This document shows, piece after piece, positions 366-64,000 of a stretch of DNA of 64,000 bases (position 1 is its first letter; each line of letters opens with the position of its first letter). The translations under genes and the position numbers were made by a program. The stretch comes from a virus (taxonomy: Duplodnaviria; Caudoviricetes), in IMG/VR virus record IMGVR_UViG_3300025915_000004, positions 10,597 to 74,596 of that record. One strand, 5' to 3'. A model generated the notes under the pieces. That model saw only the letters and a program-made list of their open reading frames with translations, did no database searches and was not told the DNA's origin.

Positions 366-616
366 CAGTTGCTCACCGCCTTGTGCAGTCCGGGAATGCC
401 GTCGAGCAGAAGAAGATCGTGGTGTGGATACGTGATCGGAGCTCCGGGGGCGGCGACGGCCGATCCGTTGCTGATCAGCCTGGCCGCGTTGACGTCGTCG
501 GTGTCGTCCCATACGTCGCCGGGCACGATGTCCGGCCAGCGGGCCCGTTCGGTGCCGGCCCGGATCGTGGTCAGTGCCTGCAAACGGGTGGTCATGCCCC
601 TCAATGTAACGCTCAT
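365..616 (-). CDS. Hypothetical protein (83 aa)
   Basis: ATGA overlap with upstream gene; MSVTLRGMTTRL... Confidence 0.55.
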   Translation of the reverse strand: MSVTLRGMTTRLQALTTIRAGTERARWPDIVPGDVWDDTDDVNAARLISNGSAVAAPGAPITYPHHDLLLLDGIPGLHKAVSN

Positions 617-1782
617 GTGCGCTGCCCTGGAGTCCTTCGGCCGGTCGCCAGCTCCCGCGCGGTGGGCCGGTGTGCCGCGCGCAGCTGCGTGCGCCCGAAC
701 CATGCTCCGGCGTGTTCGTCCGGCACGACGCCGAGCCCTCTGCACGCGCGGCAGCGGTCGTACGGGTAGGCGCGGGACGCGGCGGCGCGTAGCTTGCGGG
801 CCGCCGGGACGCGGTTCTCGCTCGCCTCGGCCTGGCGGACCAGATCGGCGATGTACCGCTCGCGCAGCTGGTCGGTGAACGCCCGGTTGACGATGCCTTC
901 GTCGCAGCTCCCGCATGCGACCGTCGGACCGGCGTAGCGGGCACGGCCGGACTGGCGCACGGCGCGTTCCTGCTTGCGGTCGAGGTTTCCGCGCGGACGG
1001 CGGTACTTCGCGTCCAGCCAGCCGGCGATGCCGGGCAGTCCTGCATCGGTCATCGCCCGGCGGCTGAGTACCTTGCGCCCGCCGCGGGCGTTACGGCCGT
1101 GCACAGGGCAGGAGACGGACCCGGCGACCAGCGTGACGCCATCGCGCTGCTCCACGGTGGCGATGCGTCCGGTGCCCTGGCACTTGCAGGTGGCGGCCAG
1201 GTAGATGCCGCGCAGGCTCTTGCCGGGCTCAGGCGGCGGCGGAGGCGGCGGGGGAGCATTCTTCGCTGGAGCCTTCTTGCGCGGCGCGGTTTTCTTCGCT
1301 GGTGCAGGCGCCTTGGCCGATCGCTTGCGCGGTGCCCGCGCAGGTGCATCGGCCGGCTTCCCTGCGGCGATCCGGTCGGCGCGGGCATTCGCCTCTCGGT
1401 ACGCCTTCATCGCCTGCGCCAGGGTGATCGGCTCGCCGGTGCGGGGGTTGGTCGCGATCACCGGACTCGGCGCGCGCTTGCGCGGCGGACGGGGTGCGGC
1501 CTTTTTCGCTGCGGCGGCCTTTTTGCGCGCCGCGGCGGCTTCGCGCTGTTCCCTGCGCCGGGCAGCCTGCTTCTCCCGTTGTTCGCGCCGCTTGCTCGCC
1601 TGGTACTGCTTGCGCCGATTGCCCTTGTTTGTGATCGTTTTCGTGCGCAGCGGCGAGCGCGCGATGTCCGTAAACGTCTGGTGCTTGCCGCCGCTGATGA
1701 ACCTGGCTGCGACCCGGTTCGGTTTCATCGCCCGTGCGGCCTGGCGCCACGGACTGCGTCGGCGCCTACGTCGGGCCATCAT
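613..1782 (-). CDS. Basic Lys/Arg/Pro-rich protein with C-terminal Cys motifs (putative Zn-finger DNA-binding protein), downstream of traB
   Basis: AKK/PAKK-like low-complexity N-half; CKC, CPVH, CGSC, CRAC motifs; start overlaps the traB stop. Confidence 0.7.
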   Translation of the reverse strand: MMARRRRRRSPWRQAARAMKPNRVAARFISGGKHQTFTDIARSPLRTKTITNKGNRRKQYQASKRREQREKQAARRREQREAAAARKKAAAAKKAAPRPPRKRAPSPVIATNPRTGEPITLAQAMKAYREANARADRIAAGKPADAPARAPRKRSAKAPAPAKKTAPRKKAPAKNAPPPPPPPPEPGKSLRGIYLAATCKCQGTGRIATVEQRDGVTLVAGSVSCPVHGRNARGGRKVLSRRAMTDAGLPGIAGWLDAKYRRPRGNLDRKQERAVRQSGRARYAGPTVACGSCDEGIVNRAFTDQLRERYIADLVRQAEASENRVPAARKLRAAASRAYPYDRCRACRGLGVVPDEHAGAWFGRTQLRAAHRPTARELATGRRTPGQRT

Positions 1783-4100
1783 GCGTCCTTGCGCGCCAGT
1801 GCGCTCAGCCGGCGGCGCGCGGTCTCATCGTCGCGCCAATACCGGAAGTCGCGCCCTTCCCGCTCGCTGGTGACGTACTCTGCGGTGCGCCACTCGGCGC
1901 ACAGCGTGCGCACCCACGACAGGGATCGGTCGTGGCCGGCGCGCTTGCCCGTGACACACAGCTCGGACACGGTCGCGCCGCGGTCGCCGAAGGTGGCCAG
2001 CAACTCCCAGTACGCCAGGTGCTTGGCCTCGATCTCGGTCTCGTCCGGGTACCGGGGCACGACCCGCGGGATCCATCCGCCAGTGCCGCCGCGGGCCGGG
2101 GTGTCGTTGACGGCGGCGTCCTGCACGCCGTCTCCGTCTCCGTCCGGGTCGTCGAACGGCGGGGGCGTGGTGACGTCCGGCTCGACGCCGTTCATGATCG
2201 CCTGGAACGCGGCGTCCGACTCCTCGTCCAGTTCCGGCCGGCTGTTCTTGTACTCCTCGACCAGCTGCGCGATCCGCTCGTCGCCGAGCCAGAACCCCTT
2301 GCGCTCGACGGGGACGCGCTCGTCCAGAGTGACCATGTAGAACTTCCCCTTGGTATCCAGTTCGTTCGCCCTGAAGTTGTCGCCGTGCGCACCGTCGTAC
2401 AGCACGATGTTGGTCAGCCGCGGTCCGACGGTCGCCACGCAGATCCGGTTCTGCGCCTGGTCGGTGCCCGACTTGATACCACCGGTCGCCAGGGCGTCGG
2501 GCTTCTGCGTGGCCACCACGATCGTCACGTCGTAGGCTCGGCCGACCTGCATGATCCGCACGTAGTTGGTGGACATGCACGCGACCGCGCGCCGCAGCAC
2601 CGGGTTCTTGTACTTTTTCAGGTCCGTCTGCCCCTGCTTGCGGAACAGCTCGGCGATCTCGTCGATGATCCCGACCAGCGCCGGGCCGTCCGCGGTGTCC
2701 CAGCCGCGCTCGGACTGGCCGGACTCCTGCCGCTTGCGCTTGAGGATCGCGCCGCGCGTGTTGATCACCGCGACCATGGCTTCGAGCAGCAGCGCGGCCT
2801 TCTCGAACGAGTCGGCCGAGGCGTAGGCGGCTTCCTCGTAGATCCCCAGCTCCAGCGAGCCGGGCTTGTTGTCGAGCAGGACCAGCAGCGCGTCGTCCAT
2901 CGCCATCACCTGAGTGGCGATCACGTTCACGACACCGCTTTTGCCGTTGTTCGTCGTGCCGCCGACCACCGTGTGATTGCGGTACAGCGGCAGGTACGTC
3001 ATTTCTCCGGTGGCCGACGGGCCGAGCGGAATCGGGTTCTTGATCGAGCGGACCGTGATTCCCGGAAAAGGAATCTCCTCGGCCAGTTCGTCGATCTCCC
3101 CATACCGCACGGTGAGGCGCACTTCGTTTCCGTTGCGGGTGCGCTGGGCGATGATCTGATTCGCGCCCAGAGCCGAACGCAATTCGTCGCGCCGCGCAAT
3201 GATCGCGTCCGGGCCGACCCCCTTGGCCGGCGCCAGGCGCACGGTGATCCGGAACGAGGACTCGTTGATCCGCTCGAAGCCGTAGACGTCGGTGAGCTTG
3301 ATCCCCAGGCCCTTGATCGCCGCGCCGTCGCCCTCGAACGCCTTCCAGACGACCGACTCCTCATGCGAAAGGATCTTGCCCGGCACGGCAGTTGCCGGGG
3401 CGGAAGTTCCGCCCGGCATTCCGAGGATTGCCGGGTTGGAGGCGGCAGTCTGGCCGACGATGAAGCCGCGCTGATCCTGAAGTCGGGAGTGCCGGTTCTC
3501 GAACCAGGCGTAGAAACTTCCGGCAGTCAGCGGCATCGAAGTTCCGGCACTAAGCCACGACCGGCCGGTGATGCAGGCGGCTCCAAATGCCACCCCCCAG
3601 GCTCCGGCGAGGCCGACCACGTGTGCGCCGCGGGAGATCACACCGTCGTCTCCGTTGATCGCGTGGATCACGTGCACCGCGCCGTACGCCAGCAGTCCGA
3701 CGATCCCGAAGCCGAGGAAGACTGCGCCGAACCACGGGTGGTTGGGCTCGGTGGCCGCCGCGCCCCAGCCGCAGACGTCGCCAGCCAACACGCCGAGCGC
3801 GGGCACCAGGTGGCGGTCCTGCATCCACTGGAACAGGGACCAGCCGGTGCGATCTGCCAAGCCGGGGGTCAGCTGATCCGCCACGTAGTCGGGGATGCCG
3901 GCCTGCTGGCCCCAAGGCTGCGTGGCGGATGGCTGAGACACAGTCGGGCGCTGGACCTGCGCGTTCGACATTGTTGCGAGTTGTTGCGCCACGCCACGCA
4001 GCACAACTTCGCCGTCGCGGCGATCCGAAATCTCGATCGCGTCGATGATTTCGTCGAGTTCTTCTTCCTTGGCGTGGCGGATGGCGTGGCGTCGCATCAT
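1779..4100 (-). CDS. traB: TraB/TraSA-like FtsK/SpoIIIE DNA translocase (actinomycete conjugal transfer protein)
   Basis: N-terminal TM segments, Walker A GTTNNGKS, Walker B LVGIIDEIAE, ATQKP motif, C-terminal winged-helix-like region. Confidence 0.88.
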   Translation of the reverse strand: MMRRHAIRHAKEEELDEIIDAIEISDRRDGEVVLRGVAQQLATMSNAQVQRPTVSQPSATQPWGQQAGIPDYVADQLTPGLADRTGWSLFQWMQDRHLVPALGVLAGDVCGWGAAATEPNHPWFGAVFLGFGIVGLLAYGAVHVIHAINGDDGVISRGAHVVGLAGAWGVAFGAACITGRSWLSAGTSMPLTAGSFYAWFENRHSRLQDQRGFIVGQTAASNPAILGMPGGTSAPATAVPGKILSHEESVVWKAFEGDGAAIKGLGIKLTDVYGFERINESSFRITVRLAPAKGVGPDAIIARRDELRSALGANQIIAQRTRNGNEVRLTVRYGEIDELAEEIPFPGITVRSIKNPIPLGPSATGEMTYLPLYRNHTVVGGTTNNGKSGVVNVIATQVMAMDDALLVLLDNKPGSLELGIYEEAAYASADSFEKAALLLEAMVAVINTRGAILKRKRQESGQSERGWDTADGPALVGIIDEIAELFRKQGQTDLKKYKNPVLRRAVACMSTNYVRIMQVGRAYDVTIVVATQKPDALATGGIKSGTDQAQNRICVATVGPRLTNIVLYDGAHGDNFRANELDTKGKFYMVTLDERVPVERKGFWLGDERIAQLVEEYKNSRPELDEESDAAFQAIMNGVEPDVTTPPPFDDPDGDGDGVQDAAVNDTPARGGTGGWIPRVVPRYPDETEIEAKHLAYWELLATFGDRGATVSELCVTGKRAGHDRSLSWVRTLCAEWRTAEYVTSEREGRDFRYWRDDETARRRLSALARKDA

Positions 4101-4936
4101 CCCGCCTCCCAGCTGTCCGAAGCTGTCCGAAGCTGTCCGAGGCTGTTCGAGAGGCGTTCGACGTCGGCGCGCAGGTTGCGCTCCCAGCGATCCGAGGTGG
4201 GGATCTTGAGCGTGGGGTGTGCGTGGCGCAACGCATCGGCCAGCTGCGTGGCGTTGGGTGCGCTACCCGTCTTCAGGACGTGGCGGGTCCACAGCGGTTC
4301 GGCGAGTTCGGCCCATACGGCGGCGGATTTGCGACCAGCCGAGCCAATGTCGACGACGTTGCCGGAATTACGGGTGGCAGCGGGGGGCGGAACGAGTGCG
4401 GCGCTGCCGCCCCCCGCTGCCGGGTCCGCTTCCGCCCGGCTGCCGGGTGCGGCCGGCGTCTTCAGGGCGGAAACGGACGTCTTGTGCCGGGCGGAAACTG
4501 CCGGGCGGAAGTTCCGCCTCGCCGCAGTCAGCTGCCGCCACAGCCAGGGGGCCAGAGAGCCCCAGCCGAGCAGGAGTACCGGGCCGACGCAGTCGACCGC
4601 CACCAGGCGCCAGTGGCTGTCGTGCAGCGCGACCGCGGTGTTGAGCCACACCATGATCAGGCCGCAGGCGAGTGCCGCCAGGTGCAGCGGCCAGTCGGCG
4701 CCCTCGTGCTCGTGCGTGGAGAGGTAGGACGCCGCGATCACCAGGACCATGACGGCCAGGTCGACGGCCGGGCCGGTCAGATATGCGATGCGGTGCTCGA
4801 CGCCGAGGCTTTCCAGGAATGAGCCGACGTTCCCGAAGGAGAAGAAGAACACCAGCAGCGGAATCAGGGACAGGCCGATACCGACGATCCAGAACGTGAT
4901 CGTCTCCACCGCGTCCGCAGACTTCCGGCCCGGCAT
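4097..4936 (-). CDS. SpdA/DUF2637-like membrane protein of a plasmid/AICE transfer region
   Basis: Four hydrophobic segments incl. GPAVDLAVMVL and GPVLLLGW; C-terminal helical DNA-binding-like region; lies between GntR and traB. Confidence 0.7.
   Translation of the reverse strand: MPGRKSADAVETITFWIVGIGLSLIPLLVFFFSFGNVGSFLESLGVEHRIAYLTGPAVDLAVMVLVIAASYLSTHEHEGADWPLHLAALACGLIMVWLNTAVALHDSHWRLVAVDCVGPVLLLGWGSLAPWLWRQLTAARRNFRPAVSARHKTSVSALKTPAAPGSRAEADPAAGGGSAALVPPPAATRNSGNVVDIGSAGRKSAAVWAELAEPLWTRHVLKTGSAPNATQLADALRHAHPTLKIPTSDRWERNLRADVERLSNSLGQLRTASDSWEAG
4111..4150. repeat. 10-bp tandem repeat AGCTGTCCGA x3 plus one degenerate copy
   Basis: Read directly at 4111-4140, then GGCTGTTCGA at 4141-4150; immediately upstream of the traB start. 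Confidence 0.9.
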
Positions 4937-5679
4937 TATTCCGCCTCCCCGATACGCAGGTCGTATTCCATGTCGAAGATTTCAGCGGACAGGATGATGA
5001 CCAATGCGTCGACAGGCCTGTCGTTGTCCGAGCGCGTGAGTCGCAGCACTCGCATCACCGGGATCCCCGCTGCGGCGATGCGCAGAATCCGCGCCTCTTC
5101 CGAGGTGGGCATGCGCGCCGAGACCCACTCGCGCGCCTTGCGCGGCGGGTAGCCGGCGCGTACCAGGGCTGCGGGCATGGCTCCGCGCAGACGCGCGGGA
5201 CGCTCCAGCTCGGTGCCGCGGGCGATCGGGACCGGGATGTAGTCGATCGCGATCTGTGTCGGGGTGCCGTCTTCGTCGAACATGACGCGGCGCCGGCAGA
5301 TCACCGGCTCGCCGGGCTCGACCTCCAGCTTCTCGGCCACGTCGTCCGGCGGGACGATGCCGCCGACCTCCGGTTTGCTGGACCGGCCGTGGTTGATGGG
5401 CGCTCCGTCGGGGACCGGTGTCACGAAGTCGGCGGAGCGGCTGGAGCGGCGGCGCACTTCGCGCACATACACCCCTTTGCCGGAGACGGCCTGCACCAGT
5501 CCGGCCGCCTTCAGGGCGCGCACCGCCTTCTGCACGGTGTTGGACGACACGCCGTACTGCGCCACCAGCTCGGTGACCGAGGGGATCGCGCGGCCGGGCG
5601 GTATCGTGCCTGATTCGATCTTTCCGCGCAGATCGTGCAGGACCCGCTGATACGCGGGAACGGTCCACTCGTCCGCCAT
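4936..5679 (-). CDS. GntR/HutC-family regulator with UTRA domain (TraR/KorA-like)
   Basis: PAYQRV..DLR..I.SG...PG..IPS..EL...YGVS..TV.KAV..L...GLV....GKGVYV wHTH plus UTRA-like C-terminus. Confidence 0.92.
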   Translation of the reverse strand: MADEWTVPAYQRVLHDLRGKIESGTIPPGRAIPSVTELVAQYGVSSNTVQKAVRALKAAGLVQAVSGKGVYVREVRRRSSRSADFVTPVPDGAPINHGRSSKPEVGGIVPPDDVAEKLEVEPGEPVICRRRVMFDEDGTPTQIAIDYIPVPIARGTELERPARLRGAMPAALVRAGYPPRKAREWVSARMPTSEEARILRIAAAGIPVMRVLRLTRSDNDRPVDALVIILSAEIFDMEYDLRIGEAE

Positions 5680-5690
5680 CGGACGGCCTC

Positions 5691-5741
5691 CCTTCGGTGA
5701 CTATGGCGCTATAGCGCTTGACTTTCACAGTACACCGAAGG
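5691..5741. promoter_or_regulatory. Candidate promoter/operator of the tra operon
   Basis: Inverted repeat CCTTCGGTG (5691-99)/CACCGAAGG (5733-41) flanking palindrome GCGCTATAGCGC (5706-17), just upstream of the GntR start. Confidence 0.55.
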
Positions 5742-5804
5742 TGACGCATCGTGACAGGGGATCGGATGGCAAACTTGACTGAGTCCAGTTACGGCACACG
5801 ACAG

Positions 5805-5840
5805 CGAAGGCGCCCGCGACCGTGTCGCAGAGCGCCTTCG
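5805..5840 (-). terminator. Hairpin terminator candidate
   Basis: CGAAGGCGC/GCGCCTTCG stem with inner GCGAC/GTCGC stem, just after the 5857 stop. Confidence 0.6.
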
Positions 5841-5856: not shown

Positions 5857-7116
5857 TCAGGGCTTGTTGATCGCGTGTCCGCTGCTGTCGACGTTGCCCG
5901 CCCAGGTGCCGTACGTGCCGGGGTAGCCGGACAGGTCGCCCACGTACCCCCACACGCCGGCGCCGAAGGTGTTGCCCTCGACGTCCACGCTGATCCCGGT
6001 CTGGTTGCGCAGCACGTACGCGCCGCCGCTCAGGTAGTTGCCCTTGACCGTGATACCGGTGTCGGTCGAGCCGCGGTCTTGGATGAACACCGCGGCCGTG
6101 GTGTCCGACCGGACCGGCGCGTCCACGTAATTGCCCTGGATCAGGATGTTGCCACCACCCTGGCTGAAGATGCCGTCCAGGTGCGTGGGGGTGCTGGAGG
6201 TGCCGTTCTGGAACAGGTTGTGTATCCAGTTGTTCAGCACCACCGAGTCCGCGCCGGGGTCCAGACCCTGCGGCATGCCGGAGATGTCGCTGCGCTCGAC
6301 GTCGATCCGGCCGCCGTACAGGCTCCAGACCGGACCCGCGTCCACCCCGGAGGGCATGCTCTTGCCGGGCAGCCAGCCGACGGTGGAGTCCTTGACCACC
6401 ATCCCGGCGTTCGCCGAGTGCCCGAGCAGCGCGTACCACGCGCTTCCGGTGCCCCCCTGCACGATCGAGTCGGTGACCGTCATCGTGCCGGTGCCGGTCC
6501 AGTAGACCGAGCCCTTGATCCAGTCATGGTCGAAGACGAGGTTGGTGCTGTCGCAGCGCAGGCCGTAGGCCTGCCACGAGGAACAGCCAGCGGGCACCGC
6601 TCCACCCGGCTGATACACGGTCAGGGCCGAGGTCGCGCCGAGGTAGCCGACCGTGCCGGGCTGCACGTAGGAGGTTCCGGTCGACGGCGACGCAGAGGGT
6701 GAGACGCTCGCCGACGCGCTCGGGCTGGGCGATGTACTCGGCGACGGCGACGCGCTCGGACTCGGACTCGCCTCGGGCAGCACGGTGAGCGCGCCGTACC
6801 AGGTGCAGGTCGAGTAGACCGTGTAGGGCCCGGACATCCCGGTCAGGGACACCTGCGGCGGGGTCGCGCTGTACGCGTCGGTCTGCGACGTGGATGAGTT
6901 GCCGTCGTCCGAGACCGCAGACACGGCGGAGAGGTAGTAGCCGGTCGTACACGGATCCGTGTAGGTGTGTGACGGATCGGTGACGTGCTGGCTGTAGACG
7001 GTGGTGGGATTGGACGCGTCCGCGTTCGACGGCGCCGCCAGGAGGAAGGTCGCCAGCATGCCGGTCACCGCTACTGCGGCTGCGGATGCGCTGGTGATCA
7101 GTGTCTTTGCTCGCAT
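5857..7116 (-). CDS. Secreted right-handed beta-helix (pectate-lyase-like fold) protein
   Basis: Sec-type signal peptide, Ser/Pro linker (SPSPS repeats), repeating V.V.N..I.G / N.I..N / H.DG motifs. Confidence 0.78.
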   Translation of the reverse strand: MRAKTLITSASAAAVAVTGMLATFLLAAPSNADASNPTTVYSQHVTDPSHTYTDPCTTGYYLSAVSAVSDDGNSSTSQTDAYSATPPQVSLTGMSGPYTVYSTCTWYGALTVLPEASPSPSASPSPSTSPSPSASASVSPSASPSTGTSYVQPGTVGYLGATSALTVYQPGGAVPAGCSSWQAYGLRCDSTNLVFDHDWIKGSVYWTGTGTMTVTDSIVQGGTGSAWYALLGHSANAGMVVKDSTVGWLPGKSMPSGVDAGPVWSLYGGRIDVERSDISGMPQGLDPGADSVVLNNWIHNLFQNGTSSTPTHLDGIFSQGGGNILIQGNYVDAPVRSDTTAAVFIQDRGSTDTGITVKGNYLSGGAYVLRNQTGISVDVEGNTFGAGVWGYVGDLSGYPGTYGTWAGNVDSSGHAINKP

Positions 7117-7128
7117 AGAGCCGAGTGT

Positions 7129-7407
7129 CTACGCGCGGGACGGCGCTGGCAATCGCGTGGTGAAGGCGAGCACTGCGGCAGCCATGGCGGCGTACACACA
7201 GTCCCGGACCGCGTCGGCGGGGTGGTATCCGTAGCGCACCAGCACGACCAGTGCCAGTCCGGTGCACGCCTGGGCGACGCCGGCCAGCCATCGCGTGTAC
7301 GCGCGGTCTTCGGCGGCTGCGGTCTCGCGGGTGATCAGGCCCATGAGCGTGGCGGCGATGCCGAGCAGCAGGCCGAGGGCGAACAGTCCGGCGGCGATAG
7401 CGGTCAT
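7129..7407 (-). CDS. Small membrane protein (3 hydrophobic segments)
   Basis: Hydrophobic 92-aa ORF; GGAG RBS. Confidence 0.65.
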   Translation of the reverse strand: MTAIAAGLFALGLLLGIAATLMGLITRETAAAEDRAYTRWLAGVAQACTGLALVVLVRYGYHPADAVRDCVYAAMAAAVLAFTTRLPAPSRA

Positions 7408-34854: not shown

Positions 34855-35265
34855 TCATCTGTGCAGGCTCGCGTAGACACCCACCGCGGTCCCCGCAGCC
34901 ACCGCCAGTGTCGTGATCACCGCGAGGAACTTCTGCCACGGCGACCATGATGCTTCACTCTTCGCCCGTGCATCCCGATCTGCTGTGCGCCGGGTGCTCT
35001 CCTGCTGCCGCAGCGCCTCGGCCGTCGCCACCACCGTGTCCGCCGCAGCCCGCGCAGTGGCGATGACCGTGTCCAGACTGGCCTGCATGTCGCTCGCCAG
35101 CTTCTGGAGCGACAGCTTCACCTCGGCGAGCCCGCCCACACCGCGGTCGATCGACCCGTTGATCGCTCTGAGGTGGTTCTCGTGCTCGACAAGCCGAGCC
35201 TCGACTCCACCCTCACGCCGCCCGCGGTCGAACGCCTCCTGCGACGACTCACTCCCGGTGGTCAT
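34855..35265 (-). CDS. Coiled-coil protein with C-terminal TM helix (lysis-cassette type)
   Basis: Heptad region, then WQKFLAVITTLAVAAGTAVGV. Confidence 0.7.
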   Translation of the reverse strand: MTTGSESSQEAFDRGRREGGVEARLVEHENHLRAINGSIDRGVGGLAEVKLSLQKLASDMQASLDTVIATARAAADTVVATAEALRQQESTRRTADRDARAKSEASWSPWQKFLAVITTLAVAAGTAVGVYASLHR

Positions 35266-35635
35266 CGACTGTGTCCTTGTCCGCCCTGATCAGGTTGGTG
35301 TCATCCCTTCGGCGCCCGCGCGGAGTGTCATGCTGCTGGACGCGGTAGATCCACCGGATGCGGTAGAGCTCGATCGACCCGGCCAGGTACAACGACCCGG
35401 TGTAGTACCAGGCGAAAAAGTTATTGCTGACGTTGATACCGAACAGTAGATGAAGAATGGTAGGCAGCAACAGCAGTGTGGTGGCGGAAGAGAATGCGAT
35501 CATGCCGCGGCCCCAAGGGTTCCTCCACCAGGGTGCGAGCATGGTGTACACGGTGATGTAGGCGACCGAACAAATGAACGAGTAGTAGAAACCCGACTCC
35601 AAGAAGTCGATGACCACGCTGTCTCCCCCCTTCAT
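35249..35635 (-). CDS. Putative phage holin (actinophage type)
   Basis: Three TM segments with Y..LAPWWRNPWGR.M motif. Confidence 0.7.
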   Translation of the reverse strand: MKGGDSVVIDFLESGFYYSFICSVAYITVYTMLAPWWRNPWGRGMIAFSSATTLLLLPTILHLLFGINVSNNFFAWYYTGSLYLAGSIELYRIRWIYRVQQHDTPRGRRRDDTNLIRADKDTVDDHRE

Positions 35636-45642: not shown

Positions 45643-47060
45643 GCGACCGAGCCTCCGATCATCTTGAAAGCATTGCGCCAGGAGACCGTACAGCGCGAGT
45701 TCCCGGTCAGATCCTGCGCCGAGTAGGCGACCGGGACCACCAGTCCGGCGGGGATCATCAGCTGGTCCAGCGAACTGCCGCGCACGACTCCGGACAGGGA
45801 CGCGGCGACCGGCGTCGAGCCGTAGGGGTCGGCGCCGATCGAGCTGGTGATTCCGACGTAGCGGTTCCAGGGCACGGTGGAGATGACGGCCGTCTGGTTG
45901 GGCGCCAGTGTCGTCTGCAATGTCAGGGACGCGGATCTGCCCTGGTACTTGATCGAGGGGTTGACGCACGGCCCGGTGATGGTGATCACAGGCCAGGTGT
46001 CGGTGGTGCCGGCGTTCAGGATCGCGCTGGACTGGTACTGGCCCTGGGTGACGATGACGTCGTCCACGTAGAAGCTGACGGCGCCGGAAGCGCCGTAGCT
46101 GACGGAGAGGGACAGCCACGCCGCTCCGGCCGGGGCTGTCTGTGATCCGCCGGCCTGCGCTCCGGTGCCTGTGCTGCTTGTCGTCGCCGTCGCCGAGCCG
46201 AAGGTGACCGGCGAACCGATGGGCGCGAGGGCGCCATTGAGCCACTGGCCGGTCACCGTGGCGGTCCCGCTGCCCGAGCTGACGCGCACGTACAGACTGG
46301 CCTGGTACGACAGTCCGGCGAGCACGGAGAGGTTCACGTACTTGACGACCGCGTTTCCGGCTCCGGTGATTGCGGCTTTCATCGAGTAGGAGCCGGTCAG
46401 CGCCCAGTCCGTCGACTGGCCGAGGGAGGAGATCAGGTTCTGCGCCGTCCAGTTCCCGGTCCAGGGCAGCTCGAAGTCGGAGTCCGCCGCGGCCACCATG
46501 TTGTCGGCGGTCTGCACTGCGGCCAGCGCCACCGGCGGTGTGAGCGGCGGTGCGACGCCGCCTCCGGTGAACGCGAAGGCCGTGCCGACTGTGAAGGACT
46601 GGAGCACGTCGCCGTAGAACGCGTTGTCGGCGCAGTCGAACTCGGCGGTGAAGGGGATGTACCCCTGGGTGATCATTCCGAGGACGGGCGTGCAGTTGCG
46701 GCCACGGCCGTAGACACGGCGGGTGACCGTGCTGCCCGGATACTTCATCCGCAGCGTGCTGACCGCTCCGGGCGACCACCGTGCGGTCTTGTTCTCCCAG
46801 GCGGCTGCGAAGCTGTCGTAAGCAGCCATCTGCGCCGCTCCGGTGCCGCCCTGCTGGAACGCCTGGCCGGTGAAGGCGATGGCCATGCCGGGCAGCACGT
46901 CGAAGCCGAACCGCCGTCCGTCGTTGTTGACCAGTTGGATGTCCTGGTTCACGCCGGCGCCGGGCTGGATCTCGGTCTTGGCGATGGACACCGTCTGGCC
47001 GGCGCCGAAGACCAGGCCGTCGATCGAGTATTGGCCGGAGGAGAGGACGGGGTCGCTCAT
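45639..47060 (-). CDS. Distal tail (Dit)-like protein with CBM-like insertion
   Basis: Follows tape measure; RRVYGR.R, N.GT..TWP.I.I.GP..NP; DS.FE..W and FYVDDV CBM-type motifs. Confidence 0.8.
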   Translation of the reverse strand: MSDPVLSSGQYSIDGLVFGAGQTVSIAKTEIQPGAGVNQDIQLVNNDGRRFGFDVLPGMAIAFTGQAFQQGGTGAAQMAAYDSFAAAWENKTARWSPGAVSTLRMKYPGSTVTRRVYGRGRNCTPVLGMITQGYIPFTAEFDCADNAFYGDVLQSFTVGTAFAFTGGGVAPPLTPPVALAAVQTADNMVAAADSDFELPWTGNWTAQNLISSLGQSTDWALTGSYSMKAAITGAGNAVVKYVNLSVLAGLSYQASLYVRVSSGSGTATVTGQWLNGALAPIGSPVTFGSATATTSSTGTGAQAGGSQTAPAGAAWLSLSVSYGASGAVSFYVDDVIVTQGQYQSSAILNAGTTDTWPVITITGPCVNPSIKYQGRSASLTLQTTLAPNQTAVISTVPWNRYVGITSSIGADPYGSTPVAASLSGVVRGSSLDQLMIPAGLVVPVAYSAQDLTGNSRCTVSWRNAFKMIGGSVA

Positions 47061-50000
47061 GGGCCTGCCACCGCCGCTTGGAGCTCTAGAAGGCGCAGGG
47101 TGCGGGTCAGTTCGCGCAGTGCGTACGCGGTGTCCCCGGTGCCGTAGTAGGCCGTCTGGTAGGTGCCGATCAGCGGCCGGTCCTTGCCGAGCGCGTCGAT
47201 GAGCCTGGAGAGGTCGCTGCGCCGCCCGGTCAGGGATGCCAGCGGTGTGACGCTGACAGCCTCGGGGCCGCGCTCCCCGACTCCGATCATCGTCGGGTGG
47301 CTGAAGACGGCGTTCAGGCCGCTGCCGTACCACCCGTAGGCCAGCTCGTGTGCCCACGCTCCCGAGGGGCTGCCGTAGCGGCCGAGGATGTAGGAGACCA
47401 TCCACATGATCTGTGTGGCCGGATCCGCGGAGCCGCCCGCAGACGGCGGCCAGCCGGCCTTCGGGTACTTGGTGTAGGGCAGCGCCTGCGCGATGCCGTA
47501 CGCACCGGAGGACGGATTCATCGCGGTGTTGGACCAGCCGGACTCGCGTGTCGCGACGTTGTTCCAGTCGAGCCAGGGCTGTCCGACCGACCATGCCGGG
47601 TACAGCCGCTTGGCCAGGGCCGCGTTCGCACCCGTCGCGCCGCCGGCGTACGCGCCGCCGGTGCTGCCCTGAGTGCTGAACTGGCCGCCAAGCAGACCGC
47701 TGAAGAACTTCGACGCCCAGCTGACTGCGCTTCCGATCATCTTCTTCGGAATGCCGGTGAGCATCTGCGCCAGGTCGCCCGACGCGTTCGGGATGCCGAT
47801 CAGGTCGGTCAGGGCGCTGGTCAGGGCGCTGGTGTCGCCGGTGATCAGGGACCAGACCACCTTGCCCACGTCGGCGGCTCCGCCGGTGAGGGATCCGACC
47901 AGGCCGCCGTTGGCGTATCCGGGGATGCCGACCGCGGCGAACAGCGGCGCGAGTATGGCCGAGTGCGCGGCCGAGACGACGGTCTCGCCGCGGCTGGCGC
48001 GGATCAGGACGTCGTCGGACTTCGGTCCCGTACCGGTCAGGATCTTGCCGCCCGCGGCGAAGGTGCCGATGTTCGGCAGGTCGAGCTTGCCCAGGCCGAT
48101 GGCGTCCATCACGTCGTTCCAGAACCGGCGGATGCCGTTGTCGTACACGGTGCCGATCAGGAAGTTGACCGGGACTTTGAAGACGTCCTCGACTTTGTTC
48201 CACGCGGTCTTGATCGCATCGACGCCGGTGTCGAACCAGCTCGGCACGGTCTTGGTGATGAAGTCGGCGATCTTGGCTCCGAAGTCCTTCCAGATCCACT
48301 GGTAGAAGTCTGATGCAACCTGCTTGATATCGCCCCAGATCTGCGACCAGTGCTTGTACAGCTCGATAGCGCCGAGGGCGATCAGGCCGACCGGCCCGAG
48401 CAGCGGCAGCAGGAACTTGCCGAAGCCGTTCCAGATGAAGTCCCAGGCATCTTTCGCCCACTGCTTGATATCGCCCCAGATCCGCTGCCAGTGCTCGGCG
48501 AGGTAGCCGATCGCCAGCCCTATCAGGCCGATCGCGGTGGGGATGGGGTCGATGGCCAGCAGCAGCAGCCCGAGGACGGGCAGCAGCAGGTGCGTCGAGT
48601 TGAGCCAGTTGACCACGTTGACGATCAGCTTCGCGATCAACAGCAGCAAGGGGGTGAGCACATTGACGATCCCGACGATCGCGTCTCCCAGGCCGCGCGC
48701 CATCAGGTCCGCCAGATGCTCGATCGTCGGGGTGAGTGCTATCAGGACCTTGAGTAGCGGCGGCAGCAGAGCCATCACGAGCTGGGTCAGCGACGGCAGC
48801 AGGGTCAAGATCGCCTTAGTGAATATCTCTATTCCGGCGTTGATCAGAGCCTGGAAAATCTGAAGCAGCGGCGGTACGAACGGTGCGAGCTGCTTCACCA
48901 GCATATTGATAAAGGTGGCGAGGGGTCCGACGACGTTCTCCAGGGCGTCGCCGAGCACCTGGAAGACCCCCGCGTTCTCCAGCACGTTGAAGACGTCGCC
49001 GAGCACCTTGGAGAGCAGGGCGAAGGACGGTGCCAGGGCGCCGATCAGCTGGACGAGCGGCTGGAGGATGCCGACTAGGTCGGCCAGCACGGCGCCCGCC
49101 AGCTCGGCGAGGATCTTGCCGATGGGGATCAGCACGGGTTCGAGCTGCTTGAGCAGGCCCGCGAACAGCTGGAAGGCGGGAGCCAGGGATGTGGCCATGA
49201 TCCCTGCGAGCTGGCCGATGAGCGGCAGGAAGCCGAGCACAAGATCGAGAAGTGCCTTCAGCAGCACGGCCGCCGGCTTCATCACGGGGGCGAAGGCGGC
49301 GAACATCTTGCCCAGCTCGGTGCCGACGGTGCCGAGTACACCCTCCAGCGTGCTCAAGATCGGCTGGACGGCCTTGAACATGGCCAGCAGTCCGGGCAGC
49401 AGGTTCTTGAACAGCTGGCCGATGGAGGAGAGGAACGGCTCCATCAGCGGCGCCACGGCGCGGAAGGCCTGGCCGAGCCCTGGCAACACGTCCTTCGCCA
49501 GCTCGGTGATCCCCTTGACGAACGGTTGGATCAAGGTCGCGGCGCCGGCGAACAGCTGGGTCAGCGGCCCGGTCAGACTCTTCATCAGCGCCGGAACCTG
49601 GGAGAATACCTGCTCCAGCGGTTTGAGCAGCGGCTGCGCCGACTTCTGCAATCCGGCTTGCAGCGATCCGAGGGCCTTCTGCGCCGGATCGTAGAGCTGT
49701 CCTGGGCTGTCCTTCGTGCCGATCAGCTGCTTGGCGCCCAGGGCGACCACGCCCGCGCCGACGCCACCGAAGCCGAGCGCCGCCGTCGGGCCCAGCAGCG
49801 CGGGCAAGGCGCCGAGCGCCGAGGCACCGAGGCCGATCTGTGTCGCCCTCTTCGCGGAGAGGCCGAGGATGCCCGGCCCGGCTGCCGATCCCAGCTTGCC
49901 GAAGAAGCTCTTGAACCCCTCGGCGGTCGGCTTCAGCGCCGCTATGACGTCGTCCGCCTTTTTGTTGCTGCCCAGCATCTGAGAGAGCAGTCGGTACAGC

Positions 50001-50557
50001 AGGCTGTTGTTGCTGCTTCCGCCTCCGCCTGCACCGCCAGGACTGGTGAACTGCCCCTTGGCGTTCCTCGGCTGCCCTGAAGACCCGCCGCCGCCCGGAA
50101 CGGTGCCTCCCGGACCGACACCCCCAGGACCCGGCGCCGGGCCCGGAGCGGACACCGTGGGACGTTGCTGTGCGGATCCGGGTGCCGGACCGCCCGCCCC
50201 GCCTCCGGCGCTGGGCGTGTTGAACATCTTGCCGAGCAAGCCGCCCTGTGCGGCCTGCTGCGCGGACGGAGAGCCGGTCACGGGGTGCGGAGAGAACAGT
50301 GCGTTCAGAGAGCCCAGGACTGAGCCCTGCGGGCTGGTGCGCAGCCGCATGGCGGCGTCGCGGGAGATCTGCTGGTCCAGGTCCGCGAACATCTTGCGAG
50401 CGCGAGTCATCGACGCGGTGTCGAAGACGGCGGAGATCTTCACGACGTGCTTCTGCGACTCGAAGTCGCGCACCCGCTGCTCGGCCCGGTCCATGTCGCG
50501 GTCGAACTGATCGAGCCGGACGGTCAGGGTGGCTTCGATGGCTCCAGCATCGAACAT
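47057..50557 (-). CDS. Tape measure protein with C-terminal lytic transglycosylase (SLT-like) domain
   Basis: Long amphipathic helical repeats; GTGPKSD.V; RESGW...A.NPSSGAYGIAQALP; VGERGPE. Confidence 0.92.
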   Translation of the reverse strand: MFDAGAIEATLTVRLDQFDRDMDRAEQRVRDFESQKHVVKISAVFDTASMTRARKMFADLDQQISRDAAMRLRTSPQGSVLGSLNALFSPHPVTGSPSAQQAAQGGLLGKMFNTPSAGGGAGGPAPGSAQQRPTVSAPGPAPGPGGVGPGGTVPGGGGSSGQPRNAKGQFTSPGGAGGGGSSNNSLLYRLLSQMLGSNKKADDVIAALKPTAEGFKSFFGKLGSAAGPGILGLSAKRATQIGLGASALGALPALLGPTAALGFGGVGAGVVALGAKQLIGTKDSPGQLYDPAQKALGSLQAGLQKSAQPLLKPLEQVFSQVPALMKSLTGPLTQLFAGAATLIQPFVKGITELAKDVLPGLGQAFRAVAPLMEPFLSSIGQLFKNLLPGLLAMFKAVQPILSTLEGVLGTVGTELGKMFAAFAPVMKPAAVLLKALLDLVLGFLPLIGQLAGIMATSLAPAFQLFAGLLKQLEPVLIPIGKILAELAGAVLADLVGILQPLVQLIGALAPSFALLSKVLGDVFNVLENAGVFQVLGDALENVVGPLATFINMLVKQLAPFVPPLLQIFQALINAGIEIFTKAILTLLPSLTQLVMALLPPLLKVLIALTPTIEHLADLMARGLGDAIVGIVNVLTPLLLLIAKLIVNVVNWLNSTHLLLPVLGLLLLAIDPIPTAIGLIGLAIGYLAEHWQRIWGDIKQWAKDAWDFIWNGFGKFLLPLLGPVGLIALGAIELYKHWSQIWGDIKQVASDFYQWIWKDFGAKIADFITKTVPSWFDTGVDAIKTAWNKVEDVFKVPVNFLIGTVYDNGIRRFWNDVMDAIGLGKLDLPNIGTFAAGGKILTGTGPKSDDVLIRASRGETVVSAAHSAILAPLFAAVGIPGYANGGLVGSLTGGAADVGKVVWSLITGDTSALTSALTDLIGIPNASGDLAQMLTGIPKKMIGSAVSWASKFFSGLLGGQFSTQGSTGGAYAGGATGANAALAKRLYPAWSVGQPWLDWNNVATRESGWSNTAMNPSSGAYGIAQALPYTKYPKAGWPPSAGGSADPATQIMWMVSYILGRYGSPSGAWAHELAYGWYGSGLNAVFSHPTMIGVGERGPEAVSVTPLASLTGRRSDLSRLIDALGKDRPLIGTYQTAYYGTGDTAYALRELTRTLRLLELQAAVAGP

Positions 50558-56749: not shown

Positions 56750-57661
56750 TCACACCCCCGACAGCAGGCAGACGGCCAGCGGCTGGTCCAGGCCGATGGC
56801 GCTGGATCTCTGGGTGTCCGACCGCCAGGTCTTGCGCGGCTCGTCCCGGTAGAGCGGTCCGGCCACGAACGGGACTTCGTCGGCGTAGAAGCCGGCGCGG
56901 TGCCGCTGCATGACGATCGCGTTGCCCGCCGGAACCTGCCGGGAGACCAGCACGTCCAGGTTGAAGATCTTCTGTGGCAGTACGCCGGTGTACAGCAGGT
57001 TCTCCGAGGCGATGTCGCCGATGTACGGGGCGGCGAACGTGCTGCTCTGGAGCAGCGTGTTCTTCGTGCCGTGGTTGATAATCAGCGTGTCGGCCTCGAA
57101 GCCCAGCCACTGCGTGATGCCGGAGGGGCTCACGATGTTGGCGTTCTCGACCAGGTAGCAGGCCTGGGCGATGTCGGCGCGGATCGTCGCCGCGGCGGAG
57201 GACCACGCGTTCGACACGGCGAGGGTCTGGATCGAGGCGTTCGCCACGACCGCCGAGTAGAACGCGGTGTTCCACGAGTAGACCATCGTGTTCTTGACCT
57301 GCAACAGCTGGCGGGTCACCGGGTCGATGGTCTGGCGGCGGCGCATCTCGTCCGACACCATGATCGCCATGGCGCGCTCGTGGGTGAACACGACGCGCGG
57401 GACGCCGATGGATGTCGGCACGACCGGGACCTCGCCGAATTCGGGCCGCACCTCGGGGTAGTCGTCCGCGTACAGCGGCGTCGACTCCGAGTAGCGAACG
57501 GCTCCGGACGGCGCGGCGCCGCCGTTGCGCAGCACAGAGTCCACGATGAACTCGTTCTGCGTGATGTCCAGGATCAGCGCGGGGATGACCAGCGGATCCT
57601 TCAGCAGCTCATTGACGGTTATCCGCGGAGCGTCTGAATATCCGCGTGCACCAGCAGCCAT
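56750..57661 (-). CDS. Major capsid protein (HK97 fold)
   Basis: ITV..LL.DP..IP, GAV.Y.E, E.PE.GE.P, D.LI; position after protease/scaffold and decoration genes. Confidence 0.88.
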   Translation of the reverse strand: MAAGARGYSDAPRITVNELLKDPLVIPALILDITQNEFIVDSVLRNGGAAPSGAVRYSESTPLYADDYPEVRPEFGEVPVVPTSIGVPRVVFTHERAMAIMVSDEMRRRQTIDPVTRQLLQVKNTMVYSWNTAFYSAVVANASIQTLAVSNAWSSAAATIRADIAQACYLVENANIVSPSGITQWLGFEADTLIINHGTKNTLLQSSTFAAPYIGDIASENLLYTGVLPQKIFNLDVLVSRQVPAGNAIVMQRHRAGFYADEVPFVAGPLYRDEPRKTWRSDTQRSSAIGLDQPLAVCLLSGV

Positions 57662-62819: not shown

Positions 62820-63399
62820 GTTCTCCGTTCCGGATGAAGCCGTGCCAGCCGGTCGGTTGGCTGTGCCAGATCGACGGCGTCACGTCGATCATGGGCGGAG
62901 TGCCGTTGACGGTCCAGAAGTCGCCGTCTCTCGCGGGCTGACTGGTGATCCACTGTCCGCCGTCGGGAAGAACCACGCACCACGATTCGACACGCTGCGG
63001 GTGACGGGCACTCATATGCTCGTCTGCCCACTCGACGCGCCACATCGTGCCGGGTGGGACTTCCTTCAGGCTGCCCCAATGTGCGAACTCGTATCCGTCC
63101 GGCCGACGGTAGATCCGGGAGTCGTTGCGTTGCCACTGGTCGTCGAGGAACCGGTATTCGCAGTTCGAACACTGCTTCGGCCAGCGCTGGTCGTCGTGCG
63201 GCCAGTTGTCCCCGTGCACCAGCTCCGACTCTTCCCAGGTGACCTGGTCGATGATCACCATGGCGTCATGTCCGCGCCATGGCGGTTGCTCCTGTTCCCG
63301 GCCGGCGCAGATCCTGCCGTCCGATCTGCCCCAGGTGAACCGGCGTAGATCCCGGCGGTACAGGCCGGTCGGCTCCGCGATGACGAGCGGGATCCCCAT
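62806..63399 (-). CDS. Protein with CxxC and C-terminal DUF6527-like domain
   Basis: CSNC; W...G......TPSI......WHGFIRNG.L C-terminus. Confidence 0.6.
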   Translation of the reverse strand: MGIPLVIAEPTGLYRRDLRRFTWGRSDGRICAGREQEQPPWRGHDAMVIIDQVTWEESELVHGDNWPHDDQRWPKQCSNCEYRFLDDQWQRNDSRIYRRPDGYEFAHWGSLKEVPPGTMWRVEWADEHMSARHPQRVESWCVVLPDGGQWITSQPARDGDFWTVNGTPPMIDVTPSIWHSQPTGWHGFIRNGELVDA

Positions 63400-63400
63400 C

Positions 63401-64000
63401 TCACACACTCCGAAGTGCGCGGATCAGGCGCTGTGTCCGGGCGCCGCGGAACGGTCCGGTGCCTGTTGACGGCAGCGTCGCGGCGTCGGCGAACGGCGCT
63501 CCGGGTGTGCATCGGCAGGTTCCGCCGTGCACGGTGCCTGGATAGCCGATCAGCGGCATGGCGTCAGCCCGGAAGTTCTTCCCGTCGGCGTCCCTGCACT
63601 CCGGTGTGGTGCGGTCGTCCAGGTGTGTGTACCAGCCGAGCAGCAGGCCGTGTTCGAGCGCGGCCATGTCGACGGCCATGGCCGCTTTCGCACGGGCCCA
63701 GATCGCATCCCGGTGCTGCCCGAAGTAGCGCGTTTCACGTGAAACACCATCAAGCAGAGCTTTTCCGACGCTCTCGCCGTTCGAGCGGGCCCGGCGCAGG
63801 TCGTCGTTGAGCCGGCGGCCGACCGCCAGCACCATCTGCCCGCGCCGTACTTGGTTCAGGAGGGCGACTTGCGCGGTGGCCGGGCCGGCGATCCCGGTGA
63901 CTTCGGGCGGCATGGACATTACGACCTGCACGGCTGATTGCAGCGCTATGCGCTCGATGCCCGCCTGGAGGTAGAGCCGCGCCAGGAGCGCGGTGACGGC
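63401..64000 (-). CDS. MuF-like minor head protein (5' end outside window)
   Basis: W....D.RT..EC...DG.......PG..H...CRC motif; frame open to the right edge. Confidence 0.85.
   Translation of the reverse strand, partial: AVTALLARLYLQAGIERIALQSAVQVVMSMPPEVTGIAGPATAQVALLNQVRRGQMVLAVGRRLNDDLRRARSNGESVGKALLDGVSRETRYFGQHRDAIWARAKAAMAVDMAALEHGLLLGWYTHLDDRTTPECRDADGKNFRADAMPLIGYPGTVHGGTCRCTPGAPFADAATLPSTGTGPFRGARTQRLIRALRSV

Follow-up and report, generated by a model that had tools for sequence, protein, structure and literature searches.

A translationally coupled GntR, DUF2637-like and TraB-like operon in tailed actinobacterial phages as a candidate DNA-transfer module

The viral DNA analysed here, referred to as the window, comprises 64,000 nucleotides and spans positions 10597-74596 of one 74,596-bp virus record, IMGVR_UViG_3300025915_000004 of the IMG/VR collection. 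Near its left end lies an operon of four overlapping genes, read on the minus strand from position 5679 to position 613, which is the subject of this report. In 5' to 3' order the genes encode a GntR regulator with a UTRA effector domain (5679-4936), a DUF2637-like membrane protein (4936-4097), an FtsK/TraB-like translocase (4100-1779), and a basic Cys-rich protein (1782-613). The genes overlap at each junction, with TAATG at 4936, ATGA at 4097-4100, and ATGA at 1779-1782. An earlier note on this DNA had described a coupled operon of three genes, for a GntR regulator, an Spd-like protein, and TraB. The operon and its coupling are real, but the list omitted the fourth coupled gene at 613-1782, and the orientation has to be corrected to the minus strand. 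A terminator scan found no terminator at the 3' end of the operon, which continues into further small genes, the first of them beginning 17 nt on.

The translocase gene (1779-4100, minus strand) encodes a protein of 773 amino acids, which matches PF01580 with 27.5 bits against a cut-off of 24 and is predicted to be a membrane-anchored dsDNA translocase. The protein consists of a disordered N-terminus, a helical section (residues 98-221, with hydrophobic helices at 122-179 by hydropathy), an alpha/beta domain (246-335), a RecA-type motor (357-640), a linker, and a winged helix (692-772), which is the order of parts described for TraB (PMC4447253, PMC3583192). The motor contains a Walker A motif GGTTNNGKS at residues 380-388 and a Walker B motif IIDEI at 478-482, and the Walker A lysine and the Walker B acidic residues are invariant in 18 translocase homologues. 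It matches FtsK and the TcpA coupling protein in a profile comparison with the PDB (1e-13), the predicted fold agrees in a Foldseek search, and an alignment of the translocase family profile with pIJ101 Tra by hhalign has a probability of 98.8% with E = 7e-17, in the motor only. In the AlphaFold2 (AF2) model of the whole protein, residues 692-772 adopt a winged-helix-like succession of helix-helix-helix-strand-strand, with a predicted local distance difference test score (pLDDT) of about 88.

The earlier note had called this protein a full TraB, which overstates the similarity. Against the NCBIfam model plasmid_TraB (NF041214) the translocase scores 22 bits compared to a cut-off of 800, with the match confined to the ATPase core, and no other NCBIfam model matches. 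In a phylogenetic tree the translocases from phages and metagenomes form one well-supported clade, whose sister clade contains gp10 of the Streptomyces phage Gilgamesh, proteins of Streptomyces plasmids of about 130 kb, and the protein of a complete virus record designated G005. The low score and the separate clade therefore lead us to describe the translocase as TraB-like in architecture; it represents a distinct phage-associated clade, and neither a member nor an equivalog of the plasmid TraB family.

The first gene of the operon (4936-5679, minus strand) encodes a regulator of the HutC type with 247 amino acids (Pfam PF00392, 1.9e-18; PF07702, 1.3e-19). The protein is 32% identical to KorA of pIJ101 (E = 4e-17), which likewise combines GntR and UTRA domains. 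Its architecture matches that of KorA/TraR of Streptomyces plasmids and its gene is linked to the translocase gene; a repressor role is predicted. The region preceding the gene (5680-5790, minus strand) contains a promoter-like block, CTGTCACGATGCGTCAYCTTCGGTGTAC, with a -10-like TACTGT at 5727-5732, and the palindrome GCGCTATAGCGC at 5706-5717, flanked by CCTTCGGTG and CACCGAAGG and followed by the Shine-Dalgarno (SD) sequence GGGAGG. No match to the sigma-70 consensus was found in 5680-5790. Both the block and the palindrome are kept in a sibling phage, the 72.9-kb record G004, in agreement with the earlier suggestion that the operon has its own promoter and palindrome, and we consider GCGCTATAGCGC a candidate operator of the GntR repressor.

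The membrane protein (4097-4936, minus strand; 279 amino acids) has four N-terminal hydrophobic helices by hydropathy (residues ~9-129), followed by a low-complexity linker and a small C-terminal helical domain that resembles a helix-turn-helix (HTH). Its assignment to DUF2637, proposed in the earlier note, is weak by Pfam, where the window protein falls below the cut-off, nine of 21 family members match at E ≤ 0.1, and the best match has E = 2.7e-5. The sub-threshold matches fall on exactly the membrane-protein gene in all five phage genomes. The assignment is backed by a tblastn comparison with annotated DUF2637 proteins of Streptomyces plasmids (38.6% identity, E = 2e-7) and by a protein atlas, where DUF2637 accounts for 29 of the 30 clusters nearest to the membrane protein. 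The protein has no similarity to SpdB of pIJ101, and SpdA and SpdB of pIJ101 are themselves not DUF2637 proteins. The nearest annotated DUF2637 relative is located in a Streptomyces actinomycete integrative and conjugative element (AICE) whose genes encode, in this order, GntR, FtsK, DUF2637, a replication initiator, an Xis-like HTH protein, and Int. Because GntR, FtsK, and DUF2637 occur together in such an element, the trio of GntR, FtsK-like, and DUF2637 proteins can be regarded as a genuine signature of actinomycete transfer modules. A complete AICE-like block is present within a 573-kb linear plasmid of Streptomyces goshikiensis (NZ_CP108578.1, 218381-232671; L057 in our collection of loci), where the gene order is divergent GntR, FtsK, DUF2637, replication initiator, HTH, and integrase.

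The fourth gene (613-1782, minus strand) encodes 389 amino acids with a basic coiled-coil N-terminal half and a C-terminal half with four CxxC-type motifs. Eight Cys/His residues are invariant, and the resemblance to the DnaJ zinc finger is limited to letter spacing. The choice of the upstream start is confirmed by an N-terminal MARRRR extension common to the homologues. There are 27 homologues, all metagenomic and all on contigs that carry this translocase family. No Pfam, PHROG, NCBIfam, or PADLOC family was found for the protein, and the protein atlas gave no usable match. An AF2 model of the protein (pLDDT 68.8) yielded no meaningful structural match: the best one among PDB representatives had Z = 5.8 and involved helices only, and the best one in BFVD had E = 0.1. 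The family of this Cys-rich partner is new.

The part of the membrane-protein gene that encodes the linker contains an array of short repeats (4385-4518), with five exact copies of the 8-mer GGGCGGAA/TTCCGCCC in both orientations and a 16-bp palindromic double site, GGGCGGAAGTTCCGCC. A second copy of the palindromic double site, GGGCGGAAGTTCCGCCC, lies within the translocase gene at 3398-3414. All seven window copies of GGGCGGAA fall between 3398 and 4510, five of them inside 126 bp, and seven of the eight copies in the whole genome are confined to this one spot of about 1.1 kb. The five array copies occupy three reading frames as well as both orientations, and it is therefore the DNA word, not a peptide, that is kept. 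When all 8-mers in the genome were scanned, the GGGCGGAA cluster and a cluster of GCGTGGCG (3920-4253) ranked just below low-complexity coding repeats.

In each of nine distinct cassettes a different short repeat is clustered at the corresponding position, within the linker-coding part of the membrane-protein gene and some hundred bases ahead of the start of the translocase gene. Besides the word found in the window, the clustered words are GGGCGGCA in G004, GGCGGCAG in G002, CGGCAGCG in L004, CGGCAACR in G005, GGTGACGG in L044, CGTCGGCG in L048/L049, TCGGCACC in L051-L054, and a shorter GGTTCCA in G001. In Streptomyces plasmids, clt consists of arrays of direct and inverted repeats of 7–9 bp, which are plasmid-specific, lie beside tra or overlap it in part, and serve as binding sites for the winged helix of the cognate translocase (PMC3583192, PMC4447253). 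TraB binds clt via 8-bp repeats, and TraR is a GntR repressor (PMC4447253, PMC3583192). The resemblance of the phage arrays to these published loci is the reason why we take the module to act on the DNA that carries it; the array at 4385-4518 would be a candidate clt equivalent bound by the translocase, and the position-fixed, cassette-specific arrays are, in our assessment, the strongest argument for such a role. The chromosomal FtsK/SpoIIIE proteins offer a second comparison, as they also combine the motor fold with a C-terminal winged helix that reads 8-bp motifs, and are guided by FtsK orienting polar sequences (KOPS) or SpoIIIE recognition sequences (SRS). However, KOPS are spread and skewed over the chromosome, whereas the window motif is concentrated in one spot of ~1.1 kb, in the style of clt.

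Two other sequence features lie near the array. A 10-bp unit (sense strand, TCGGACAGCT) is repeated three times in tandem at 4111-4150, at the 3' end of the membrane-protein gene and right before the SD sequence of the translocase gene. The first ~115 nt of the translocase gene contain an inverted repeat (3984-4091, minus strand), in which two copies of CGCCACGCC at codons 3-9 are followed some 95 nt further on by GCGTGGCGTGGCG. This repeat is nucleotide-identical in five cassettes (the window, L003, L004, L005, and L002), with two to three copies of CGCCACGCC. The z-score of its RNA fold is only -1.4, and with invariant arms covariation is uncountable. GCGTGGCGTGGCG includes CGT, a codon that is rare in high-GC genomes. 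The inverted repeat may be an mRNA structure or a protein-binding site, and the peptide motifs RHA..RHA and LRGVA of the translocase may be by-products of a constraint on the DNA or RNA.

The operon belongs to a complete phage genome. The first and last 99 bp of the record are identical, IMG/VR assigns it to the class with direct terminal repeats, and its completeness according to CheckV is 100%, from which we conclude that the record is a closed assembly of about 74.5 kb and not a prophage within a chromosome. It represents the complete genome of a soil actinobacterial tailed phage. Based on codon statistics, 107 genes were called across the record. The genes for the particle, packaging, and lysis are all present: those for the large terminase and a Mu-type portal are located left of the window, and the window contains genes for the major head protein (56750-57661), the tape measure protein (47057-50557), and a holin (35249-35635). 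The phage also encodes minor tail proteins, an endolysin-like protein, and a DNA methyltransferase. A replication block on the plus strand encodes PolA, an SNF2 helicase, a PD-(D/E)XK nuclease, and an AAA_24 ATPase, with PrimPol encoded on the minus strand. The tailed-phage context claimed in the earlier note is therefore borne out. Among cultured phages, the closest have only 35–41% protein identity and come from Gordonia, Mycobacterium, Arthrobacter, Streptomyces, and other hosts; as these relatives are actinobacteriophages of several genera, we place the probable host in Actinomycetota, as some member of that phylum. A megablast comparison of the first 12 kb with phages yielded no matches.

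The earlier note had seen no integrase or att site, and had proposed to look beyond the window ends for int, parAB, att repeats, and circularity, naming an own integrase with flanking att-like repeats as the observation that would speak for an independent element. The assembly is circular, a six-frame search of the whole 74.5-kb circle revealed no tyrosine or serine recombinase, and no direct repeats of at least 14 nt flank the tra block. With no integrase and no flanking att-like repeats in a circular phage genome, we reject the idea of an independent element, such as an AICE, that is nested in a prophage, and the operon occupies the same place in the sibling G004. Six-frame searches with working positive controls also detected no ParB_N, no ParA (AAA_31, CbiA), and no protelomerase.

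Comparison with other phage genomes shows that the operon is maintained at its position in close relatives and is also carried by distant ones. For almost all genes the sibling G004 and the window are collinear, with 95% identity of the major head protein and ~80% identity of the replication proteins, and G004 keeps the operon at the same place, so that the synteny check suggested in the earlier note turned out positive. Identities within the operon are 72% for the regulator, 62% for the membrane protein, 61% for the fourth protein, and 38% for the translocase. Three other complete records, G002 (60.5 kb), G001 (116 kb), and G005 (110 kb), have essentially only the cassette in common with the window. 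Portal and head proteins are encoded by G002 and G001, and the layout of G005 is that of G001. By this comparison the core cassette is carried by at least two unrelated phage lineages, one represented by G002 and the other by G001/G005. Further cassettes were found on metagenome contigs, and the translocase family and its Cys-rich partner were seen only on metagenomic contigs of phage type. Among 185,579 bacterial species genomes there was no close relative and only one irrelevant short match, a search that used a single peptide pattern and is weak evidence of absence.

The translocase motor is only 31% identical between the siblings (the window phage, G000, and G004) but 85% identical between the unrelated G004 and G002, and in the N-terminal part of the protein G002 and L004 share 78% identity. 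The contrast between siblings and unrelated phages therefore indicates that the translocase is a domain mosaic generated by domain exchange, a pattern that would fit specificity switching or conflict. G001 and G005 share an identical stretch of 150 bp ahead of their GntR genes (63363-63500 and 83998-84135, respectively), whereas their translocases diverge strongly, being 45% and 28% identical to that of the window, and the Cys-rich partner is present only in G001. Identical upstream DNA combined with divergent translocases may be a further sign of cassette exchange.

The region upstream of the operon is variable. A gene at 5857-7068 on the minus strand encodes a 403-amino-acid protein with a Ser/Pro-rich linker and a weak match to right-handed beta-helix proteins. 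It is missing from G004, where a homologue of a small membrane protein (window 7129-7407) directly precedes the regulator. The beta-helix gene may be a recent acquisition with a depolymerase-like product. Just 3' of its stop codon, a hairpin CGAAGGCGC ... GCGCCTTCG (5805-5840, minus strand) was read from the sequence. It has no U-tract after it and was not called by the consensus terminator scan; it is a possible transcript boundary ahead of the operon.

In its organisation the block resembles the TraB/clt/TraR(KorA) and Spd systems of Streptomyces plasmids and AICEs (pSVH1, pIJ101, pWTY27, and pSAM2-type elements), which also place a GntR+UTRA regulator beside an FtsK-like membrane translocase that ends in a winged helix. 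A multi-pass accessory membrane protein of the DUF2637 kind is likewise found in a Streptomyces AICE, and a local cluster of short repeats, direct and inverted, next to the transfer genes or within them is a property of plasmid clt (PMC4447253, PMC3583192). The KorA-like GntR regulator, the DUF2637-like membrane protein, and the architecture of the translocase support the notion that the block is organised like an actinomycete TraB-type module. There are also clear differences. The phage operon resides in a tailed-phage genome without rep, int, or xis; its regulator is co-directional and translationally coupled, whereas theirs is divergent; its array lies inside the coding sequence of the membrane protein; and it includes an additional conserved Cys-rich basic protein. 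Moreover, the phage translocase falls well short of the plasmid_TraB cut-off and groups in a clade of its own, and the membrane protein is unlike SpdB of pIJ101.

Large genes of the FtsK family are also known from cultured Streptomyces phages, including Gilgamesh, Mandalore, Naboo, Geonosis, Jaresh, and AndoPrime, and such genes have been annotated with no function assigned (10.1101/2024.02.16.580700, PMC13587820, PMC11536984). Gp10 of Gilgamesh, the representative of the sister clade, has 637 amino acids, is followed by a membrane protein, and is 28.5% identical to the window translocase. However, neither a GntR nor a DUF2637 gene is annotated in the 11 kb surrounding gp10, and Gilgamesh is a temperate phage with a tyrosine integrase, unlike the window phage. 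FtsK-like proteins are also encoded by five Streptomyces records of 129.7–132.6 kb that are labelled as plasmids (CP108533.1, NZ_CP122459.1, NZ_CP107821.1, NZ_CP070374.1, and NZ_CP108441.1) and by two IMG/VR virus records of 129–134 kb (loci L007 and L008). The protein of NZ_CP070374.1, the one of the five that was placed in the tree, groups with gp10 of the 129-kb Gilgamesh, and these plasmid and virus records may be plasmid prophages of the Gilgamesh type. A 5.3-kb plasmid record assigned to Pseudomonas sp. SK2 (NZ_CP061945.1) encodes a protein 99.8% identical to pIJ101 Tra and is probably a Streptomyces vector or a mislabelled record. Spd (SpdB2) homologues in the phages phiC31 and VWB were suggested by Thoma et al. 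to spread phage DNA (PMC4447253). These phages are described with an Spd-like protein only, whereas the window also has a motor, a regulator, and a candidate recognition site.

These observations lead us to propose, with about even confidence, that the operon is native to a non-integrating tailed actinophage, where it forms a conserved module, and works like a TraB-type system for the transfer or spreading of dsDNA. In this scheme the GntR/UTRA protein would repress the operon at the upstream palindrome in the manner of kil-kor systems until it is relieved. The translocase would then assemble into a membrane ring, its C-terminal winged helix would dock on the repeat array within the neighbouring membrane-protein gene as the equivalent of clt, and the motor would pump the phage's own dsDNA genome across a septum or a cell–cell contact, assisted by the DUF2637-like membrane protein and the basic Cys-rich protein. 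As there are no detectable genes for lysogeny or plasmid maintenance, the likely benefit would be that an ongoing infection reaches adjacent compartments or cells independently of virions, and not the life of a stable conjugative plasmid. The gene content, architecture, and coupling of the operon, its phage context, its conservation among phages, and the fixed position of the repeat arrays are observed; the identity of the repeat-binding protein, phage DNA as the cargo, and the benefit to the phage are the parts of this scheme that we infer. More tentatively, and as a possibility to which we give less than even weight, the TraB-like translocase, the linker-encoded array, and the Cys-rich partner could constitute a self-specific pump in actinomycete phages without lysogeny genes, such that the genome passes directly to neighbouring compartments or cells and the motif of each lineage moves only that lineage itself.

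Several considerations weigh against a transfer function. DNA binding, pore formation, and transfer are all steps that we infer, and the translocase falls outside the curated plasmid TraB family, as described above. The base of the tree, where pIJ101 Tra, AICE FtsK, and cellular FtsK attach by long branches, has a support of 0. The palindromic double sites would also suit a dimeric regulator instead of the translocase, and the repeats in L044 mostly share one reading frame, which could reflect a repeated peptide. Transfer between hyphae presupposes a mycelial host, and the host may be non-mycelial. Furthermore, a lytic phage that kills its compartment would leave only a narrow time window for profitable DNA export.

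An alternative that we regard as rather unlikely, yet as the best of the competing explanations, is that the pump leaves phage DNA unmoved and is directed at the host or at competitors, where it would disturb septation, sporulation, or chromosome segregation, or exclude superinfecting phages or plasmids. FtsK-like genes have been mentioned in relation to host development, without tests, in papers on Streptomyces phages (10.1101/2024.02.16.580700, PMC13587820), and fast evolution by domain swapping, as seen in the translocase motor (31% identity between siblings, 85% between unrelated phages), is found in conflict genes too. A factor directed at the host would, however, need no recognition site of its own, while the cassette-specific, gene-linked array looks like a self-recognition site, and both the regulator and the membrane partner are those of transfer modules. 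A known defence system was considered and rejected, the similarity being limited to generic HTH and HerA/FtsK-type ATPase matches.

The earlier note had proposed a candidate conjugative phage-plasmid. Such an element would be maintained as a plasmid prophage and spread both by virions and by TraB-mediated conjugation. The model for such a lifestyle is pZL12/phiZL12 (Zhong et al. 2010), a conjugative Streptomyces plasmid-phage for which, according to a citing paper, tra and two adjacent genes are needed for conjugal transfer (PMC3583192). Like the window phage, pZL12 as described there combines particle genes and a tra gene on one element. The lack of an integrase in the window is compatible with a non-integrating lifestyle, the record assembles as a circle, and the many open reading frames (ORFs) without an assigned function could hide maintenance genes. 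Terminally redundant virion DNA is equally expected to assemble as a circle, however, and pZL12 and its relative pSLE1 are reported to carry ParA/ParB and plasmid replication functions (PMC4487206), in contrast to the window phage, where neither ParA/ParB nor plasmid replication functions were detected. The six-frame searches for ParB_N, AAA_31, CbiA, and protelomerase were negative, and the replication genes (PolA, PrimPol, SNF2 helicase, PD-(D/E)XK nuclease) are of the lytic-phage type. Because the label requires maintenance functions and none were detected, the plasmid half of the proposal is unsupported, and we consider a phage-plasmid to be a decidedly unlikely explanation. Among the ten matches to the translocase in a tblastn search of a plasmid collection (E ≤ 1e-5), none was a record of the size of pZL12 (~90 kb), the inclusion of pZL12 in that collection being unchecked.

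Less probable again, and in our view quite doubtful, is the idea that the pump loads phage genomes into prespore compartments during sporulation septation, which would allow dispersal inside spores. In Bacillus, phage DNA is trapped in forespores in a SpoIIIE-dependent process. A membrane translocase with a linked recognition array would provide the same parts as in the transfer reading, and a phage without lysogeny genes would find another route of persistence useful, but the sequence holds nothing specific to sporulation. Finally, a selfish passenger derived from a plasmid or an AICE, carried along as a remnant or moron that does nothing for the phage, is highly improbable: the cassette does occur in differing genomic contexts of unrelated phages, where it looks exchangeable, and it borders a plastic region with a beta-helix neighbour that is missing in the sibling, but it lacks an integrase, a Rep, and flanking repeats, its four genes have remained intact and translationally coupled, with sibling identities of 61–72% (38% in the translocase), and the translocase family and the Cys-rich partner were found only on metagenomic contigs of phage type.

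Besides the Cys-rich protein family, the new findings are a full operon of regulator, membrane protein, motor, and partner in phages without detectable lysogeny genes, its recurrence in unrelated phages, and the position-fixed, lineage-specific repeat arrays within a coding linker. Many animal and plant viruses are known to pass from cell to cell with no extracellular stage, whereas among phages, to our knowledge, such spread has only been speculated upon, for the Spd homologues in phiC31 and VWB. The recurrence of a full candidate machine, comprising a regulator, a membrane partner, a motor, a recognition site, and a fourth protein, across several complete genomes of phages opens the idea to direct testing. 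If it is true, these phages would have a route of spread that is independent of both virions and receptors, and the boundary between conjugative elements and viruses would be blurred in a different way than by plasmid-phages of the pZL12 type. The candidate DNA recognition sites inside a protein-coding linker would, in addition, constrain the evolution of the protein that carries them.

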